Shown piece by piece: positions 49,156-64,000 of a stretch of 64,000 nt of DNA. The notes beneath the pieces were generated by a model. The model made no database searches, was not told where the DNA came from, and saw only the letters and a list, made by a program, of their open reading frames with translations. Within the stretch, counting starts at the first letter, position 1. Each line of letters starts with the position of its first letter. The stretch covers positions 9,338 to 73,337 of the forward strand of contig MHWB01000013.1 in assembly GCA_001823925.1 (NCBI GenBank), given 5' to 3'. The translations under genes and the position numbers were made by a program. Origin of the DNA: Candidatus Zambryskibacteria bacterium RIFCSPLOWO2_01_FULL_39_39 (GTDB taxonomy: Bacteria > Patescibacteriota > Minisyncoccia > Phycocordibacterales > WO2-35-19).

Positions 49156-50778
49156 ATGTTTAAAATAGAGCAAAAAATCTCGAAGTCACTGGGTCGAGCT
49201 GGTGTTTTAATTACTCCACATGGGGAGGTACAAACACCTAGCTTTGTAGCTGTCGGTACTAAAGCAACGGTCAAATCTCTCTCACCCGAACAGGTCAAAG
49301 AGGCTGGGTCGCAAATAGTTTTGGCCAATACCTATCATCTTTATTTAGAACCCGGAGAAAAAATTGTGAAAGAAGCGGGGGGCTTGGGTAAGTTTATGAA
49401 TTGGCAAGGTCCAACTATGACAGACTCGGGCGGTTTTCAAGCTTTTTCTTTGGGGGTGGCTTATGGAAGTAAGCTTAGTAAATTTATTGGCAATGAGTCT
49501 CCAAAACAAGAAGAGATAGACGAAGCTTATAGAGAAGAGCGAGATAAGAAAGCAAAGATTACCGAAGATGGGGTGGAATTTAAATCTATTATAGATGGTA
49601 GCAAACATTTTTTTACTCCAGAAAAATCAATGCAAATTCAAAGTGACCTAGGAGCTGATATTATTTTTGCTTTTGATGAGTGTACTTCACCACATGCACC
49701 CAAGGAGTATTTGAAGGAAGCTTTGGCGCGGACTCATCGTTGGGCAGAAAGGTGTTTGATTGAATACAGAAAAAATCACCCCACCCCGACCCTCCCCGAA
49801 GGGGAGGGTGCCCAAAGGGGAACTTTCGGTTATCACACAACAGATTCGGTTACTTGGAAAAATCTTCAACAAAGAGTTTTAGAAATGAGAGAAAAACCTA
49901 CTCCCGCTGAAAATATGCTATGGCAACATTTAAGAAAAAATTCAACAAAATATCATTTTAGAAGACAACATATAGTGGGAAATTTTATTGTTGATTTTGT
50001 TTGCCTAGAAAAATCATTAGTAATTGAAGTTGATGGAGATATCCATGATTACCAAAAGGAAGAAGATAAATCCAGAACAGAGTTTTTAAATAAATTAGGT
50101 TTTTATATTTTAAGATTTAAGAACGAAGAGGTAGTAGAGAATATTTTAAAAGTATTAGAGGGTATAAAGGTTGGTCTTAAAGCCCTCCCCTTTGGGGAGG
50201 GTTTGGGTGGGGTTTCTTCCCAAGCTCTCTTTGGCATAGTCCAAGGTGGCAGGTATGAAGATTTGAGGAAAGAAAGCGCTAAGGTGATAGGAGAGATGGA
50301 TTTTGATGGTTTTGGCATTGGAGGCTCCTTTGTTAAAGAAGATATGGCGACAGCGGTCAAATGGGTGAGTGGAATTTTGCCAACTGATAAACCTAGGCAT
50401 CTTTTGGGGGTGGGAGAGCCTGTTGACATTATTTTTGGTGTTGAAAACGGATGCGACACATTTGACTGTGTCGCCGCGACACGTATGGCGCGCAATGGCA
50501 CACTCTATACCAAACGAGGTAAAATAAATATCAACAACGCCAAGTATAAAAATATTTTTGAGCCGATTGAAGAGGGGTGCAAGTGTTATACTTGTAAAAA
50601 TTATACCTGTTGCTACCTTTCCCACCTTTTTCGCTCCAAAGAAATGTTGGCCGCTACTTTAGCATCTATTCATAATCTTTATTTTATAAATTCTCTGGTT
50701 GCAGAGATGAGAGAATCAATTTTAAACGAAAATTTTTTTGATTTTAAAGAAAATTTTTTAAGAGATTATAAAGTTTAG
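49156..50778 (+). CDS. tgt: Queuine tRNA-ribosyltransferase carrying an in-frame ~145-aa insertion that contains a DUF559 endonuclease domain
   Basis: 540 aa; TGT N-terminal (LITPHGEVQTPSFVAVGT, LANTYHL, TDSGGFQ), then insertion between ERCLIEYRKN and QALFGIVQGG, then zinc site CKCYTCKNYTCCYLSH. Confidence 0.8.
   Translation: MFKIEQKISKSLGRAGVLITPHGEVQTPSFVAVGTKATVKSLSPEQVKEAGSQIVLANTYHLYLEPGEKIVKEAGGLGKFMNWQGPTMTDSGGFQAFSLGVAYGSKLSKFIGNESPKQEEIDEAYREERDKKAKITEDGVEFKSIIDGSKHFFTPEKSMQIQSDLGADIIFAFDECTSPHAPKEYLKEALARTHRWAERCLIEYRKNHPTPTLPEGEGAQRGTFGYHTTDSVTWKNLQQRVLEMREKPTPAENMLWQHLRKNSTKYHFRRQHIVGNFIVDFVCLEKSLVIEVDGDIHDYQKEEDKSRTEFLNKLGFYILRFKNEEVVENILKVLEGIKVGLKALPFGEGLGGVSSQALFGIVQGGRYEDLRKESAKVIGEMDFDGFGIGGSFVKEDMATAVKWVSGILPTDKPRHLLGVGEPVDIIFGVENGCDTFDCVAATRMARNGTLYTKRGKININNAKYKNIFEPIEEGCKCYTCKNYTCCYLSHLFRSKEMLAATLASIHNLYFINSLVAEMRESILNENFFDFKENFLRDYKV
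49777..50212 (+). mobile_element. DUF559-encoding insertion element with ~35-bp GC-rich hairpin terminal inverted repeats, integrated in frame within tgt
   Basis: left end accccaccccgaccctccccgaaggggaggg is approx reverse complement of right end ccctcccctttggggagggtttgggtggggt; internal 49915-50160 encodes MLWQHLRKNSTKYHFRRQHIVGNFIVDFVCLEKSLVIEVDGDIH...LRFKNEEV (DUF559). Confidence 0.55.
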
Positions 50779-57508: not shown

Positions 57509-57510
57509 AA

Positions 57511-57759
57511 ATGATGTATACTTTATTGCAGAGGTGGTCCGTGAATAACCAACTTCGTTTTCCACCCGATTGTCATGTGGTCGGGGAGGTTTCTGTCTCC
57601 AGACAAGGAGAATTAGAAACCAGTAACGTGTACGTTGAAGGTATTCACCCAGAGTTACACCTTTATGGTCCAGTCTCGTACCAACAAAAAGGGGATGGTA
57701 GTTTGGAAACGATAGTGAGAGTTGTTACGGGGTTGCCGCCGGAGGTATTTTTGGGATGA
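57511..57759 (+). CDS. Hypothetical protein at edge of high-GC island
   Basis: 82 aa ORF starting 3 nt after htpX stop. Confidence 0.25.
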   Translation: MMYTLLQRWSVNNQLRFPPDCHVVGEVSVSRQGELETSNVYVEGIHPELHLYGPVSYQQKGDGSLETIVRVVTGLPPEVFLG

Positions 57760-57876
57760 AGAATATGAGTATGGGATGGCACAATCCTCGTTGTCGTCCC
57801 TTTTTATATATAAATTATTTTGGAAATGAAAATGGCTCTATCCAATTGGATAAAGCCATGGTACTACGTATATTGC

Positions 57877-59289
57877 CTACAGATTGGCAAGACGATCAAG
57901 GTAAGGTTTGGCCTCAGGGCCAAAAGCTTTCCTTATCCTCACCGCGAACATTCTTCGGAAACCACCACTGGTACGCGAGAGCACTGCTCTCAGGGAACTA
58001 CCAAGAGCGGGCTTGTAGTAACCGAAATCTTTCTTCAGCAACTTCTCCCAAGTCCCGTTTTTCCACTTACCGCCCTGGGACTTCTTTAACTCAAGAGTCT
58101 TGAGTGCCCATGTGACTTGCTCGCGCGCATCAAGATCTTCCCACTTTCTCCGTTTCAGTGGCTTTCCGAGTGCCGGTTCCGCTGTTTTTGTCGGTTCTGT
58201 CTCTGCGATCGATGACTCCTGGGTGGGGGCGGGAGTTTCCTTTTCAACAACCTCATCAACATTTACCTCACCAACCACTCCCTTCAGGGATTCGATGATG
58301 GTGTCGAGCCTCTGGCTCTTTAGCAAAAGATCGTTATACTCTATCAATACATCTCCTCCGACCATGCTCGCGAGCGTAGCGAGTTTTGATGTCTGTGGTG
58401 TCATAGCCACTTCTCCTTTCACAACTTTTTCGGTTTTCTGAACAATTGGTGTTGCATCAATGGCAGATTTGACTTCAATAAAGTCATCTCCATTGGCAAA
58501 AAATAGTGGACTCTTTGTCCAGACTCTTGCGAAAGCTAGTTCTTCTCCTTTGCGACCCCCTGGTTTGAATTCGAAGCGGAAAAAATACGTCCGCATCCTA
58601 AATGGCCGCTCTTTATAGCGACTCACGTACACGTATCTCTCCACGATTACTGGTATCCAAGGGAAACCTCGGATCTTCAATAATTCTGTAAGTTCTACGA
58701 GTAAGCCGAATTCACGCTTTGCTCCTTTCTCAGGATCGAAAGGCTTGATAAAAGCTCGGGTATTCTTTCTGGTTGGAATAAGTCGCTGTTGGTAGAGGAT
58801 ATCTTCAAAGATATTTTCTGTTTGACTCCCAAAAATTTTTTTAGCGCGTCTTTGGAAATCTGGCCACTTCTCAAGCGCCGGGTTTCTGCGAGCGTCGGCA
58901 ATTGTAATCGCTAAGCATCGCCCTTTACTTTTGAGGACAAGGGGTAGCGCTGGAGCAAAGTTTGCAATTGTTGAATTAGAGAAAGTGCCGCACAAGTCCA
59001 GATGAAATCCATCCACAAATGCGTGGTCTTCTCCATGACCCGCCAAGATCTGATCGAAGGTGCCTAGTTGGTTCTGAGTTCTGTACCGATGACCTCCGAT
59101 CAACTTAGCGCTAAGTTTGCGATTGCGCTCGATGAGCCAACCATTTCCGTCGGGGATACCGAGCTCTGACCAAATCTTGGCTTCGAGTCCGTGCCCTCCA
59201 AGAGTTGCAAGTTGTGCCTCCTTCAGAGGAAGATACCGTGAGACTAATTCTAAAAATGACCTGACAACTTGCCCCTTAAGACTTTCCAT
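57877..59289 (-). CDS. Hypothetical 470-aa protein; N-terminal ~170 aa possibly Rossmann/ParB-like (GGHG..., LIGGHRYRT), basic C-terminus
   Basis: long ORF with coding-like composition in ~50% GC island; no confident family assignment. Confidence 0.45.
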   Translation of the reverse strand: MESLKGQVVRSFLELVSRYLPLKEAQLATLGGHGLEAKIWSELGIPDGNGWLIERNRKLSAKLIGGHRYRTQNQLGTFDQILAGHGEDHAFVDGFHLDLCGTFSNSTIANFAPALPLVLKSKGRCLAITIADARRNPALEKWPDFQRRAKKIFGSQTENIFEDILYQQRLIPTRKNTRAFIKPFDPEKGAKREFGLLVELTELLKIRGFPWIPVIVERYVYVSRYKERPFRMRTYFFRFEFKPGGRKGEELAFARVWTKSPLFFANGDDFIEVKSAIDATPIVQKTEKVVKGEVAMTPQTSKLATLASMVGGDVLIEYNDLLLKSQRLDTIIESLKGVVGEVNVDEVVEKETPAPTQESSIAETEPTKTAEPALGKPLKRRKWEDLDAREQVTWALKTLELKKSQGGKWKNGTWEKLLKKDFGYYKPALGSSLRAVLSRTSGGFRRMFAVRIRKAFGPEAKPYLDRLANL

Positions 59290-59370
59290 AAGATTTCCCC
59301 CTTTCCTCCATAGTATGTCAAAAATCTACTTGAGATTTCTGAGGGGTATTATAACTAAGTGGATTATTTT

Positions 59371-59408
59371 TGTCAATACATTGACATTGTAATAAAAAAA
59401 TATATAAT
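59371..59408 (+). promoter_or_regulatory. Consensus sigma70 promoter TTGACA-16-TATAAT overlapped by palindrome TGTCAATACATTGACA (candidate operator)
   Basis: -35 59381-59386, -10 59403-59408, RBS AAGGGAG before ATG 59436. Confidence 0.55.
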
Positions 59409-59435
59409 ACAGATAGAAAAAAGGGAGAACATTTC

Positions 59436-60170
59436 ATGATACCAAAGAAAAAAAATACTTCATCGTCGGGTGAATCTCTGCCCAAAGTTACAGAATTGCG
59501 CAACGAAAAAGAAATTGTCCGCGCTGTTTCGTACACTGAAGAAGAGCTGGCTACACACCTAGATCCAGAAACTTCAGATACGGCAGATTCAGAATCAAAG
59601 AGTTTAATTTTGCGTGGTTTACTTGGGGTGGTGAAAAATATCGGTCTCGGGCAAACCAATTATGAGCTCTCTTTAAGCATTGACGGATTAATCCACATCA
59701 TAACTGAACTTGATAGAGCTGCTCTCGATTTGGTAGCTGGCGCAGAGGCGCAGGTGGCAGAATTTGCAACAGAGCTCGAAAAATCTCAGGAGAAGAAGTT
59801 GACTCTGCCGACGCTGTCTCTCGCCGAGATTACCGTCGAACTCAAGCGCCGCGACGAGATACGAGAAAGAGTCTCTTCTATCCAAGAGGGGCTCGAGAAC
59901 GAGTGTGATTCGATAATTGAGGAGATCAGAACATTTGATCAGCTCCTGCAGCATAATGTGTCAAGCGATCCTAAAATCACGAAGATGAGAAGGGATCAAT
60001 TGGGGCAAAAGCTACAGAGTTTGAGCAAGACTGTTGATGGTATCGTCGGAGCCATATCCGATAACGATCGTAAAGTCGAAGCTCTGCTTGCTTACGAAAA
60101 CGCTGTAAAGCTCGTGAGTGAAGGGCTACCGGAAGGCATTATCGGCGAAGAGATCAGTCTCGGAAAGTAA
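59436..60170 (+). CDS. Hypothetical coiled-coil protein
   Basis: 244 aa, acidic, helical heptads; strong promoter and RBS. Confidence 0.5.
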   Translation: MIPKKKNTSSSGESLPKVTELRNEKEIVRAVSYTEEELATHLDPETSDTADSESKSLILRGLLGVVKNIGLGQTNYELSLSIDGLIHIITELDRAALDLVAGAEAQVAEFATELEKSQEKKLTLPTLSLAEITVELKRRDEIRERVSSIQEGLENECDSIIEEIRTFDQLLQHNVSSDPKITKMRRDQLGQKLQSLSKTVDGIVGAISDNDRKVEALLAYENAVKLVSEGLPEGIIGEEISLGK

Positions 60171-60230
60171 CCGAGTAGAAAACAACCCCAAGACCATATG
60201 GCCCTGGGGTTTTTGTATCCATCTAGGAAA

Positions 60231-61742
60231 TTACTTGAGGAACTCGCTCCGAATCTTGTTTGCAAACAGAGTCGCTTCGTTCGGATCGCGAGGGAACTTG
60301 CTTTTGCCGATCGCAGCCAGCACCTGCATGAGGCAGTGTTCGCGTCGGGCCTGCTTGGTTTCTGGCAACGCCTTGTACCCACCCCGCACGTTGGTGAAGA
60401 TCACCTTCGGATTGTTGGGGTTGACTTGGGCAAAAACGAACGGATGGAGAGTTTGTCCACGATAGAGATTATAAATCTCATCATGAACTCTGATCGAGAT
60501 ATACCGACGATACTTATCACCTGCCGGCGTGGGTTCTCCACCACCACTGGGCTTCGGACCATCGGTCGGCTCCTTGGGTTTTGGATCCCGCGGTTTCCTG
60601 GTGCCCCCCTCAGAGATATTCTCTCCGTCGGGTTCACCGAATCGATCATTGAACATCTCCGCGAGTTCGTCGAGCGTCTCCGCGGCATTACCACGGATAG
60701 CATCGCGCTCGATAAGCTGCTTCGAGACTGGAGCGACTTGGCTGATCAAAAACATCAAGAGCTTTGACCACTCCTTATTGCCCTTGCGAGTGAACTCCTT
60801 CGCCAAAGTGCTTCGCGCCGTATTCTGGTAGCGAAGCAATCCTGGAGCAAAGATGTCACCTACAAGATCGGGGTACCATAGCGGGTCGGGCAAAAGTCGC
60901 CCGAGCTTTTGGCAGCTTGCAACACGAAACCCAGTCTCGTCATCGCAAAGCCACACGCCATCGCTCTCGGTATTACCTACTCCAAGTCGGGCGCGATAAC
61001 GTCCGTCCTGGGAGGTAATGTTGATGTCCATCTCAAGTGGCGGAGGCCCATAAGTTTTACCACCGATGAGAAGATCGAACATCTTATCCTGTTCGCGAGG
61101 CAAGAGCCATTTCACAGCATCGTAAATTTCGCCGTGGCTCTGGAAGATCGGGGTCGGAATGATAATCGAAGTAAACGAGCCCGGAATATTCTTCAGCGAA
61201 CCCATTTCCGTCGAAGTCGGGGAAATGAAACGCTCGGTCTCAAATCCCTGCTCCGTCTCCGCTCTCTCCGGGATAACCGGTACAAACCTGACTTCACCGG
61301 ACTTGGAAGTTCGGGAAAGTAGATAGTAACCATGTTTGATCCGGGTCATGATGTCGTCATGCAAGCAGTTCTCATTCAGGGCAAGAGCGGCAAGCCGTCC
61401 GATACCTTTTTGAGAAGCTCCATTGTAGGAGCCATTTTGATGCTGCCTGAGTTGGGCAAGTGGCGTACCAAGCCAATTAAAATATCGCTCGAGTGCCGGA
61501 TCGGTGAGACCGCATCCGTGATCGAGGATAACGAGTGCTACACCCTTGCTCGGGGACAGTGGATGATTCGGAACGAGCGAAACTTCAATCTTCGCCCGCT
61601 TCGGCTCCCACTTGTTGGTTGGCATGCTGGCCACCAGCGAGTTGCGGATGAGTTCCATCACTCGCTGGCCTTCGCTCTCATAGAGACCGGTAGCCAGGTT
61701 GTCCACCATGTGGAAAGCCGTCACTTTCATTTGAAGCTTCAT
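60231..61742 (-). CDS. GHKL-superfamily (HATPase_c-like) ATPase with ~250-aa unknown C-terminal domain
   Basis: 503 aa; N-box ELIRNSLVA, G1 box VILDHGCGLT, G2 box SQKGIGRLAALAL; 3rd gene of operon (ATGA overlap with upstream ORF). Confidence 0.5.
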   Translation of the reverse strand: MKLQMKVTAFHMVDNLATGLYESEGQRVMELIRNSLVASMPTNKWEPKRAKIEVSLVPNHPLSPSKGVALVILDHGCGLTDPALERYFNWLGTPLAQLRQHQNGSYNGASQKGIGRLAALALNENCLHDDIMTRIKHGYYLLSRTSKSGEVRFVPVIPERAETEQGFETERFISPTSTEMGSLKNIPGSFTSIIIPTPIFQSHGEIYDAVKWLLPREQDKMFDLLIGGKTYGPPPLEMDINITSQDGRYRARLGVGNTESDGVWLCDDETGFRVASCQKLGRLLPDPLWYPDLVGDIFAPGLLRYQNTARSTLAKEFTRKGNKEWSKLLMFLISQVAPVSKQLIERDAIRGNAAETLDELAEMFNDRFGEPDGENISEGGTRKPRDPKPKEPTDGPKPSGGGEPTPAGDKYRRYISIRVHDEIYNLYRGQTLHPFVFAQVNPNNPKVIFTNVRGGYKALPETKQARREHCLMQVLAAIGKSKFPRDPNEATLFANKIRSEFLK

Positions 61743-62398
61743 AAACTTTTTCTCCTTTTCAATGTTTTAAATCCGAGATCTCGCAAATCTTCGCGAGTCA
61801 CCGGCTGGCTACGAGTCATATCTGGCTCAGGAAAAACTGCTTTGATACCGAACGCCTTGCAAGTGCGCGTGAGCGCATCACAAATTTGCATCCGGTCGCC
61901 GTCGTAAACATCGGAAGGCCTGACGCCCGTCTCGATGATGAGACCTACAAGTGAATTGAACAATGTGATGGTGTGGTCGATTAGTTTTCGAGCCGCACCA
62001 GAAGTGCTTGGCTCACTCATTTGCCTCTCCCGATAAATCTCTTCCGGAATTTTTTCGATCGGTTTTTCAATTTCTACTTTCAGAGTGCCGTTTGCGATTT
62101 GACTCAATGTCCTGAGGACTAGTCGGATGTCGTCTGCTCTCATTGGCTCGCCGTTAAGCCAGCCTCTTACTTTTTGAAATCCTTCGCCTTGTATTTTCAA
62201 ACAATGGCGAGTGAATTTTCTCACAGCATTACGACTGTTGACCGCATTGTGCGGGGAGATCACTTGGATTGCCCGCCTCAACTGCTCCATCATTTTAGAG
62301 AAATCCCAATCGAACATATTTTCACTGATCTCGTGCGCAACAGATTCTTTGGCGTCTTCAAACACTTCTGTTTGGCTTCTAGTTTGTTCGTTTTCCAC
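61739..62398 (-). CDS. Hypothetical protein (operon partner 2)
   Basis: 219 aa; stop overlaps start of GHKL ATPase gene. Confidence 0.45.
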   Translation of the reverse strand: MENEQTRSQTEVFEDAKESVAHEISENMFDWDFSKMMEQLRRAIQVISPHNAVNSRNAVRKFTRHCLKIQGEGFQKVRGWLNGEPMRADDIRLVLRTLSQIANGTLKVEIEKPIEKIPEEIYRERQMSEPSTSGAARKLIDHTITLFNSLVGLIIETGVRPSDVYDGDRMQICDALTRTCKAFGIKAVFPEPDMTRSQPVTREDLRDLGFKTLKRRKSL

Positions 62399-62558
62399 GT
62401 TTACCTCCTAGCATTGTGGATTGTAAAATAACATTCTCAAGTCCAGCTTGAGTTATTGCACGATATACTATTTCACACACAATGTCAACTCTCAAAATTT
62501 ATATAAAAATAAGCCGTGGATTCTGTGATCCACGGCCGTCTTGCACTCCTTACTCAAC

Positions 62559-63356
62559 TTATTTGGTCTGGGCGCCTCTAATTAAGGTACCCAAATTATT
62601 AATGGTGCTGGTGAGACGTTCAACTTCTCCATTCAGTCTCACGTTCTCCTCTGTCAGGGCCTTGTTTTCTCTGGCGATCAAATGTGCTTTCCGAAGCAAC
62701 TCTTCGGTTTCCGCAAGTTTTTCACCCTTTACCCTGAGCTCTTCGCGTAGCCTGTCGCATTCGATAGTTGTCGCCCTGACTTCGTCGGCAATGACGAGGA
62801 CAGCCAGTTGAGCTCCCTCCACAACACTGTTGAAGTTATTAAGTGCATCAAGTGCCGCCGCAACATTTTCGGGATTTTGAGGAGCTGGAGTGGGTGTATC
62901 GTCTGAACTTGAAGCTGGACTCTCCGAGACCTCAAATCTTTCAACTGGTGGGGGAGGGGTTGCTTCAAAAACTACCTCAGCGGGGGTGGAAGAACTTTTC
63001 CCATTATTTCCATTATTCTTTTCTCTCACCTGAGCAAGCAGGTTGAGGACCGCCTTGGCCTCACCAACAGCAAGGGCTTGTTGTATGCAGAGCACCCTTG
63101 AATTTTCTGCTGATTGGCGGACATTTGCCAAAGTTCCCGGAACAAGCCCCGCCATAGTTAGAACAATGGTGGCTTTGCTTGGGACGCTGGTTACGTGTGC
63201 ACGCCACTCAGCTCTGATCCAGTCGCCCTCTCGATTCAGTTCTTTTACTAGGCTTTTCAGTTGACCTATCCCTCTTTCATCATCTTTACCAACTAAGAAG
63301 ACGATGTCGTCTTTTGATAGGGAAGTTGGTAGTTGGTCTAAGATTCCTGGTCTCAT
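62559..63356 (-). CDS. Hypothetical protein: ~110-aa N-domain, Pro-rich linker, C-terminal coiled coil (operon partner 1)
   Basis: 265 aa; RBS GAGAGGAG before ATG. Confidence 0.45.
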   Translation of the reverse strand: MRPGILDQLPTSLSKDDIVFLVGKDDERGIGQLKSLVKELNREGDWIRAEWRAHVTSVPSKATIVLTMAGLVPGTLANVRQSAENSRVLCIQQALAVGEAKAVLNLLAQVREKNNGNNGKSSSTPAEVVFEATPPPPVERFEVSESPASSSDDTPTPAPQNPENVAAALDALNNFNSVVEGAQLAVLVIADEVRATTIECDRLREELRVKGEKLAETEELLRKAHLIARENKALTEENVRLNGEVERLTSTINNLGTLIRGAQTK

Positions 63357-63478
63357 TTATTTCTCCTCTCTGATTCCAGAGCCAATATAACTTACGTATC
63401 TTTATTTGTCAACAATGTGAATCATTTGATATTATGGTATAAAATCATTGGAAGCTCAGGAGTTATAAGGAGAAATCT

Positions 63479-63706
63479 ATGTCTCATTTTGTTTCCGGAT
63501 CATGCGAAGGAGAAAAGTGTCGAATGTGCAAAGATCCTACTCCCGCGACCCACAAAGTGGGGGAGGAAATCTTGTCAGACGATCCGAATCCAATTCGCCA
63601 CAATCTTACGGCATATGTCTGCTGTTTGCACTTTGGCCAGATCTTCGGGCCGGTTGCTCAGCAAGCTTGTTTAGAAAACAAAATATTGTGGGATTTCAAA
63701 GGATAG
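63479..63706 (+). CDS. Small Cys/His-rich (putative zinc-binding) protein
   Basis: 75 aa; CEGEKCRMC...H...H...CC.H; extended -10 TGGTATAAAAT and RBS AGGAG upstream; divergent from operon. Confidence 0.4.
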   Translation: MSHFVSGSCEGEKCRMCKDPTPATHKVGEEILSDDPNPIRHNLTAYVCCLHFGQIFGPVAQQACLENKILWDFKG

Positions 63707-63787
63707 AATTACAAAAAGGCGTTGCCAACAGAAGGCGACGCCGGATTTTTTATAGATATTCCTTAACTTACACAGAATACCTATATT

Positions 63788-64000
63788 TTACCTTCCCCAA
63801 AATCCATAGTCTTTGTGAAGTCTCTGTAGAGCATCGTGCATCACGCAAAATCCCTCATTACTCAAACCTGCTCGACGAAGCGCTTCCAGTTTTGCAAAAC
63901 TATGTCTATTCATTCCCGCTCGTAATTCACTGGATTTCCAATAAATACTTGAGTAGATGTAGTAGGGTAGGAAAATCGTCGACTTGATCAGATTACACAT
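63788..64000 (-). CDS. Hypothetical small protein
   Basis: 70 aa ORF starting at the last base of the window. Confidence 0.2.
   Translation of the reverse strand: MCNLIKSTIFLPYYIYSSIYWKSSELRAGMNRHSFAKLEALRRAGLSNEGFCVMHDALQRLHKDYGFWGR

Follow-up and report, generated by a model that had tools for sequence, protein, structure and literature searches.

The prokaryotic MORC and paraMORC ATPases occur in restriction–modification (R-M)-like operons together with DNA methylases, and the S5 motif specific to the MORC proteins has the form GhXhhpXXRhl (Iyer, Abhiman & Aravind 2008, PMC2292703). The paraMORC1–5 proteins start with a GHKL domain whose ATP motifs are intact, continue with an S5 domain and end in a C-terminal extension specific to the family; their distribution is sporadic and laterally mobile, and a methyltransferase is present in the gene neighborhood. 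The present analysis concerns a cassette of five genes, here designated A to E, located near the end of a 64,000-nucleotide stretch (the “window”) of the genome of Candidatus Zambryskibacteria bacterium RIFCSPLOWO2_01_FULL_39_39. These paraMORC properties are common to the cassette, whose protein C is predicted to have the same succession of domains and whose protein A is predicted to have a methyltransferase fold.

On the other hand, the cassette differs from the paraMORC systems in several respects: no superfamily II (SFII) helicase, restriction endonuclease (RE)-fold, HNH, HKD, Vsr or TIR partner is found in any of its loci; methyltransferase A is an orphan, unlike Dam or Dcm; two extra partners, D and the coiled-coil protein B encoded on the opposite strand, are obligatory; the GhXhhpXXRhl motif is not clearly present in C; and there is no family-level match in PADLOC, Pfam or NCBIfam, the cassette having been found so far essentially only in metagenome-assembled genomes (MAGs) of the ultra-small Patescibacteria. 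No publication describing the cassette was found in a literature search. Judged by fold, it would work in the manner of a paraMORC–methylase system; it matches no described system. Our preferred reading, held tentatively and at slightly less than even confidence, is that the cassette may represent an undescribed nucleic-acid-directed conflict (defense-like) system of the “paraMORC plus methylase” kind.

The cassette and its conserved core

The GC content of positions 57510–64000 is 0.471, as compared with 0.377 for positions 1–57509, and no other 6.5-kb segment of the sequence exceeds 0.408 (mean 0.374, standard deviation 0.019). A preliminary description of the window had reported a jump to ~50% persisting up to the end of the window; the anomaly is real, but ~50% is reached only at 60–62 kb, with a peak of 0.53 over gene C, whereas in the final 640 bases the GC content is back to 0.40. 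The rise is restricted to the 5.5 kb spanning E to A, where the GC content is 0.48. This stretch does constitute a real cassette, self-contained and with five genes: a core (D, C, B and A) and the variable member E.

Gene A (57877–59289, minus strand) encodes a protein of 470 residues with a predicted class I S-adenosylmethionine (SAM)-methyltransferase fold and a basic helical domain, and gene B (59436–60170, plus strand) an acidic protein of 244 residues, predicted to be helical or coiled-coil. The product of gene C (60231–61742, minus strand) is a 503-residue putative GHKL (Bergerat) ATPase with an S5 transducer, of the MORC/Hsp90 type, and its start is overlapped by 4 nt by gene D (61739–62398, minus strand; 219 residues), while gene E (62559–63356, minus strand) encodes 265 residues comprising an alpha/beta-looking N-domain, a linker and a coiled coil.

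Related loci, collected via C homologues in species-representative genomes and metagenomes as well as through exact look-up, were compared by tblastn and profile searches. In the standard layout E, D and C are on one strand and B on the opposite one, followed by A. Gene A lies 1–2 kb downstream of C in all 25 distinct loci having enough sequence (25/25); a B-family gene is located on the reverse strand between C and A, and a D-family gene immediately upstream of C, mostly with a 4-nt overlap. In two rearranged loci (L023 and L025) A and D-C are divergently oriented and the coiled-coil gene of the B family lies on the far side, all four families being kept. The linkage persists down to 33–38% identity of C; in these distant versions the protein in the D position has 259–397 residues and the coiled-coil protein encoded on the reverse strand 355–909 residues, and these larger proteins are homologous to D and B as judged by profile or transitive BLAST. 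Thus, D, C, B and A are strictly co-inherited and always found together. Because of this conservation and layout across the loci compared, the functional unit is taken to be the four-gene core plus the variable E, and a functional link between the partner genes and ATPase C is supported by the synteny seen in about 25 independent loci.

The promoters and terminators of the cassette were identified as pattern matches to the sigma-70 consensus and to hairpins and represent predictions only. Its left edge is marked by a terminator-like hairpin after A (57832..57859, minus strand), detected by both scan and palindrome search and having a T run after its 12 bp stem; at its right edge lies a promoter-like site preceding E (63384..63412, minus strand; 11/12 match). 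The promoters of A (59348..59376, minus strand; TTGACA, 17 nt spacer, TATAAT) and of B (59381..59408, plus strand; TTGACA, 16 nt spacer, TATAAT) match the consensus at 12/12 positions each and are arranged back to back, with abutting −35 boxes which make up the palindrome TTGTCAAtacaTTGACA. Of the promoter and operator-like palindrome previously attributed to B, the former is therefore confirmed as a 12/12 match, but the latter is accounted for by the −35 boxes of B and of the opposed A promoter. The same arrangement, TGTCAA-n(1-5)-TTGACA, is found again in most related loci. Within the 60 nt separating genes C and B, which are convergent, there is a hairpin (60184..60211, no strand assigned; 12 bp stem with 7 GC pairs) which is likely a terminator common to both; a promoter-like site (62460..62488, minus strand; 10/12 match) precedes D-C and a scan placed a terminator-like hairpin after E (62512..62537, minus strand). 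Overall, four transcription units, E / D-C / B / A, are predicted. The three co-directional minus-strand genes, two of them overlapping, had been described as an operon; the overlap of D and C is confirmed (4 nt) and suggests that D is translationally coupled to C, but the three genes would not form a single operon, E being predicted to be transcribed apart from D-C.

The ATPase, the methyltransferase-fold protein and their partners

The domains delineated in C are a GHKL plus S5 module (residues ~1–320), a helical hairpin (323–368), a disordered Pro/Gly/Lys linker of 36 residues (374–409) and a basic alpha+beta domain (411–503), so that the “~250-aa unknown domain” of the preliminary description resolves into the S5 transducer, the hairpin, the linker and the basic domain of 93 residues. 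The N, G1 and G2 boxes on which the GHKL assignment had been based stood up to scrutiny, for E30xxxN34, D74xGxG, G113xG115 and G188xFT191 are kept in 26 homologues which are 44–80% identical to the window protein. The features defining the GHKL superfamily (ExxxN, DxGxG, GxxGxG and G/T motifs, Bergerat fold) are all found in C and, as in a MORC/paraMORC-type module, the S5-fold domain comes directly after the GHKL domain. In the AlphaFold model of C (pLDDT 86, pTM 0.80), 250–300 residues align structurally with the GHKL+S5 portion of MORC3, MORC2, SMCHD1, TRAP1 and the N-terminal domain of MutL. Within the S5 region, the segment G271-F-R-V-A-S-C-Q-K279-L fits the hydrophobic pattern of the MORC motif, the position of the conserved Arg being variable (K/Q/A/R/S/D); R273, V274, A275, Q306 and R310 are invariant in the alignment of homologues. 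The Pfam profile HATPase_c_3 (PF13589) matches C of the window with 21.6 bits (E 2.4e-4), below the gathering threshold of 25 bits, and a precomputed match to it exists for 12/52 C homologues. The C-terminal domain (pI 10.1) contains four strands and two helices, with E468 invariant and H469 near-invariant; a zincin or SprT-Wss1-like metalloprotease was considered for this domain and rejected, since there is no HExxH motif. On these sequence and model data, C is best described as a predicted ATP-binding GHKL+S5 module of the MORC/Hsp90 type, having an additional basic C-terminal domain.

Compared with the eukaryotic proteins MORC2, MORC3 and SMCHD1, which are ATPases of chromatin compaction and silencing, C is just 14–16% identical and has neither a CW zinc finger nor an SMC hinge; furthermore, the coiled coils of the cassette reside on separate polypeptides. 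As to Hsp90 (TRAP1, GRP94, HtpG), the N-domains of Hsp90/TRAP1 were the sole, marginal matches (E 0.0075) of C in a profile search of the PDB sequences. Unlike Hsp90, C has no C-terminal dimerization domain and its NCBIfam HSP90 score is 13.9 bits vs a cut-off of 455; the obligatory methyltransferase partner of the cassette is likewise unparalleled among these chaperones.

Protein A begins with the class I SAM-methyltransferase fold (residues 1–265), which is followed by a short conserved helical segment (300–340) lying between two disordered acidic linkers and by a basic helical domain (378–470). Both the methyltransferase domain (pI 9.8) and the C-terminal 93 residues (pI 10.6) are strongly basic. 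Invariant among 45 homologues are G31G32xG34xE36, E54, D93..H96xD98xCG101, D132xR134xN136..E140, R192E193, R218 and M232R233; the glycine loop is intact, as is the acidic residue terminating beta-2. The model has the Rossmann-like seven-strand architecture, the glycine-rich motif I, the beta-2 acidic residue and the post-beta-4 catalytic motif of class I methyltransferases, and A is thus assigned to this fold with an added basic helical module, its enzymatic activity being predicted. The ParB-like N-terminus that had been suggested for this protein is instead the Rossmann fold of a methyltransferase, without any ParB_N match; a genuine ParB_N-methylase is another gene, located beyond the window.

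The structural neighbors of A are headed by Trm1 and include Trm14, TrmN, Trm11 and the 12S rRNA m4C methyltransferase (7pnx_b), all nucleic-acid N-methyltransferases. Compared with class I enzymes of the Trm1/Trm11/Trm14/TrmN and RsmH type, however, A has no detectable sequence homology and adds a beta-hairpin, a helical insertion and a unique basic C-terminal module. A profile search of the PDB sequences gave 0 matches at E<=10 and there is no Pfam match; when 1.84 billion representative proteins were searched exhaustively with the profile of A, only 242 relatives (clusters) were returned at E<=1e-3, so that this profile is unconnected to any large methyltransferase family, and a scan for fused known domains found no Pfam domain in the ten longest members of the family. 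In a distant version of the cassette, the gene located directly downstream of A (L025:9713-11599) encodes a 628-residue protein composed of three to four tandem repeats of the ~90-residue basic C-terminal domain of A, which accordingly behaves as an independent, repeatable module.

That several of the best structural neighbors of A, with Trm1 at the top, are tRNA or rRNA methyltransferases is one of the properties that would suit an accessory module unrelated to immunity, in which A methylates RNA (tRNA or rRNA) or protein, C is an Hsp90-like, ATP-driven chaperone or remodeler of the matching ribonucleoprotein and the coiled-coil proteins are adaptors. The Hsp90-like similarity of C would likewise allow such a role. 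The lack of a nuclease and the housekeeping genes flanking the cassette are in line with such a module; the NCBIfam HSP90 score of C, far below the cut-off, is not, and further evidence bearing on it comes from the distribution of the cassette described below.

The remaining proteins offer fewer clues. Searches with B, D and E found nothing past coiled-coil noise in Pfam, NCBIfam, PADLOC, PHROGs and the PDB sequences; for all six ORFs together, Pfam, PHROGs, PADLOC and NCBIfam yielded just such noise below threshold and the weak HATPase_c_3 match of C. Profile searches of the PDB sequences with alignments of A, D, B and the C-terminal domain of A gave nothing usable, nor did Pfam reveal a fused known domain in the larger proteins of the D and B families from the distant loci. 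The C-terminus of B carries the conserved motif AYRxAxxLVxxGLPxGxIG; its homologues range from 135 to about 900 residues and its weak matches are all helical or coiled-coil proteins, a weak PADLOC match to PbeC (E 4e-4) being read as a coiled-coil artifact. In D it is the C-terminal half that is conserved, with R137, S149, G-D168-R169-M-Q and P199xT201xxD204 (GDRMQ and PxTxxDL). E has an alpha/beta-looking N-domain (~1–115), joined by an acidic, Pro-rich linker to a coiled coil at the C-terminus. It is the variable accessory member, which occurs in two sequence types, has the reverse orientation at some loci and went undetected in the distant versions. From their sequences, B and E are apparently coiled-coil proteins.

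Distribution, chromosomal sites and mobile elements

Among 185,579 species-representative genomes, 13 were found to contain a member of the C family, and with two exceptions these are labeled as Patescibacteria lineages. The exceptions (L016 and L017) are MAG contigs with distant versions of the cassette; they bear the unconfirmed label “uncultured Gammaproteobacteria”, one of them being a single 633-kb contig, and may be mis-binned or mislabeled small genomes. The insertion sites differ among genomes and are flanked by housekeeping genes. The flanking pairs include flavodoxin-like gene/ychF, cpYpsA/PPDK and M13 peptidase gene/alaS; elsewhere addA, lgt or a sugar transferase gene is a neighbor of the cassette. 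In one related genome it lies near htpX, as in the window, with a MacAB-like transporter intervening. Between this genome and that of the window HtpX is 78% identical, whereas the identities of C, A, B, D and E are 69, 58, 50, 47 and 39%, respectively, and by this measure the cassette proteins diverge faster than the neighboring HtpX. A decaying copy is present in a Doudnabacteria MAG (L005:7832-9073 and L005:12232-13943), where an rve-type insertion sequence (IS) transposase separates E from D and where gene A, frameshifted, is split over several frames.

A cassette that is so extremely sporadic, that occupies varying chromosomal sites, that diverges faster than its neighbors and that also exists as a decaying copy fits dispensable conflict or mobile genes and not RNA-modification machinery; these properties speak against the accessory RNA- or protein-modifying module considered above, which we regard as the main alternative, possible but not probable.

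The cassette is 2–9 GC points above its flanks in 15/15 loci (L001, L005–L017 and L021), in backgrounds ranging from 40% to 57% GC. This excess could stem from the composition inherent in the cassette or from transfers that occurred repeatedly out of donors richer in GC and, being present in every host examined, is by itself no evidence of recent transfer in the window genome. The horizontal acquisition which had been deduced from the GC content remains plausible on other grounds, since the chromosomal sites differ. The many insertion sites, the clean five-gene boundaries, the GC content always above that of the flanks, the strong autonomous promoters predicted and a methyltransferase-plus-partner logic resembling that of R-M addiction modules could also be those of a selfish, addiction-type or mobile module, kept by its own transfer or by post-segregational effects without benefit for the host. 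However, no recombinase, transposase or terminal repeat is consistently associated with the cassette, which is absent from the phage, plasmid and viral collections searched and in which no toxin-like domain was recognized; a selfish module is in our opinion improbable. As to the boundaries of the region, at which a search for an integrase or att repeats had been advised, no tRNA, integrase or convincing direct repeat was found: integration next to a tRNA is ruled out by the distance of the nearest tRNA (15 kb), and the att-like direct repeats at the flanks are just 12–14 nt matches, often at chance level.

Exact sequence matches place the window in a Candidatus Zambryskibacteria MAG and in many metagenome contigs, from which the region past position 64000 was read. 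It contains two to three small open reading frames (ORFs), a gene for a secreted PepSY-like protein, one for a ParB_N-N6/N4 DNA methylase and those for a small and a large terminase; two further ORFs come next, and then a multicopper oxidase gene. A prophage remnant is recognizable here (L002:1916-5193, the locus being reversed with respect to the window), encoding a ParB_N+N6/N4 DNA methyltransferase of 459 residues, a small terminase-like helix-turn-helix (HTH) protein of 130 residues and a large terminase of 510 residues (phrog_38, E 1e-78), and lying between the cassette and the multicopper oxidase gene. With these genes about 2.5–3 kb away in the window genome, the cassette might belong to this prophage as cargo or as a remnant; it would then be a set of phage genes, serving for instance replication, anti-defense or superinfection exclusion, and not a bacterial system. 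Nevertheless, the remnant has the background GC content (0.35–0.41, vs 0.48 of the cassette) and no phage genes are found beside the cassette in the other loci examined; furthermore, there are no relatives of C in IMG/VR and none of A or C among the INPHARED phages or the PLSDB plasmids, and no PHROG match of the window ORFs is below E 0.006. On the searches of IMG/VR, INPHARED and PLSDB a prophage or plasmid origin was rejected, and that the cassette is cargo of the neighboring phage genes is highly improbable.

The cassette is flanked by two ORFs that are outside it, namely F75 (63479–63706, plus strand), a local neighbor of 75 Cys/His-rich residues, and an 82-residue ORF adjoining htpX (57511–57759, plus strand). 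Both have an elevated GC content (0.46), and neither has a family match or a homologue beside the cassette in any other organism. Thus, while the sizes and strands of the six ORFs in the preliminary description were all correct, the set of six genes is reduced to five, four of them core, the Cys/His-rich protein not being conserved with the cassette. Elsewhere in the window, a 540-residue tRNA-guanine transglycosylase (49156–50778, plus strand) has, according to precomputed Pfam matches, a DUF559/MTES_1575 (Vsr-like endonuclease) domain between two transglycosylase segments; this may be a homing-endonuclease-type insertion into a housekeeping gene.

Possible mechanism and significance

If the cassette is indeed a conflict system in which a paraMORC-like ATPase is combined with a methylase, its mode of action might be the following. 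A would bind nucleic acid via its basic domains and methylate a base, the resulting mark being either a self-marking or a signal read by C. The latter protein, together with D, would dimerize through the GHKL heads upon ATP binding, in the way MORC, MutL and Hsp90 do, and would clamp or remodel foreign nucleic acid, which lacks the mark, or else a nucleoprotein complex, with B and E acting as coiled-coil scaffolds or adaptors and each transcription unit presumably driven by its own near-consensus promoter. The effector step might consist of entrapment or silencing, or of an activity hidden in one of the unassigned domains, namely D, the N-terminal part of E and the C-terminal domain of C; since no nuclease or helicase is recognizable, this step would be non-nucleolytic or reside within those domains.

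The linkage of the core genes, the differing chromosomal sites with their housekeeping flanks, the methyltransferase fold of A with its neighbors among the nucleic-acid N-methyltransferases, the strongly basic methyltransferase and C-terminal domains of A, the basic C-terminal domain of C, the rare and patchy distribution, the divergence exceeding that of HtpX, the decaying copy and the precedent of the MORC/paraMORC operons are all consistent with a conflict system of this kind, whose function in defense we infer from analogy and distribution. A number of observations weigh against it. Pfam and NCBIfam scans detected no nuclease, helicase or other effector domain in A, B, D and E or in their larger distant homologues. 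A comparison of the window proteins with PADLOC, as had been recommended, gave no system match: no model of PADLOC-DB v2.0.0 corresponds to the cassette, with A, C, D and E giving nothing at E<=1, and the original impression that the gene combination has no name is borne out by PADLOC, Pfam, NCBIfam and PHROGs. In addition, the cassette is not within recognizable defense islands, its GC excess is present in every host tested without explanation, and C is as similar to Hsp90/TRAP1 as to MORC. Finally, A is in no known DNA-methyltransferase family and its structural neighbors are mostly RNA or small-molecule enzymes, so that its substrate could be RNA or protein.

A further possibility is a form of prokaryotic immunity or epigenetic silencing that is new in kind and nuclease-free, in which the orphan methyltransferase would mark nucleic acid and the MORC-type GHKL clamp, with D and the coiled coils, would topologically entrap or compact the unmarked DNA of invaders; the cassette would then correspond, in bacteria, to the silencing by MORC/SMCHD1 in eukaryotes and would have arisen in, or be restricted to, the Candidate Phyla Radiation (CPR). 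This possibility is unlikely.

To our knowledge, there has been no mechanistic characterization of bacterial MORC-like ATPases since they were predicted, in 2008, to act together with methylases in conflict systems. The cassette, being a minimal and strictly conserved version of four to five genes without helicase or nuclease, would be a clean system in which to approach the role of the prokaryotic MORC clamp and its coupling to methylation, a question that bears on the origin of MORC/SMCHD1 silencing in eukaryotes. It also adds three or four protein families without known fold, together with an orphan clade of methyltransferases that comprises only ~240 clusters among 1.8 billion proteins. 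As far as we know, the phage biology of the CPR is almost unexplored; if the preferred reading is true, the cassette would be among the few candidate lineage-specific defense modules of the CPR.

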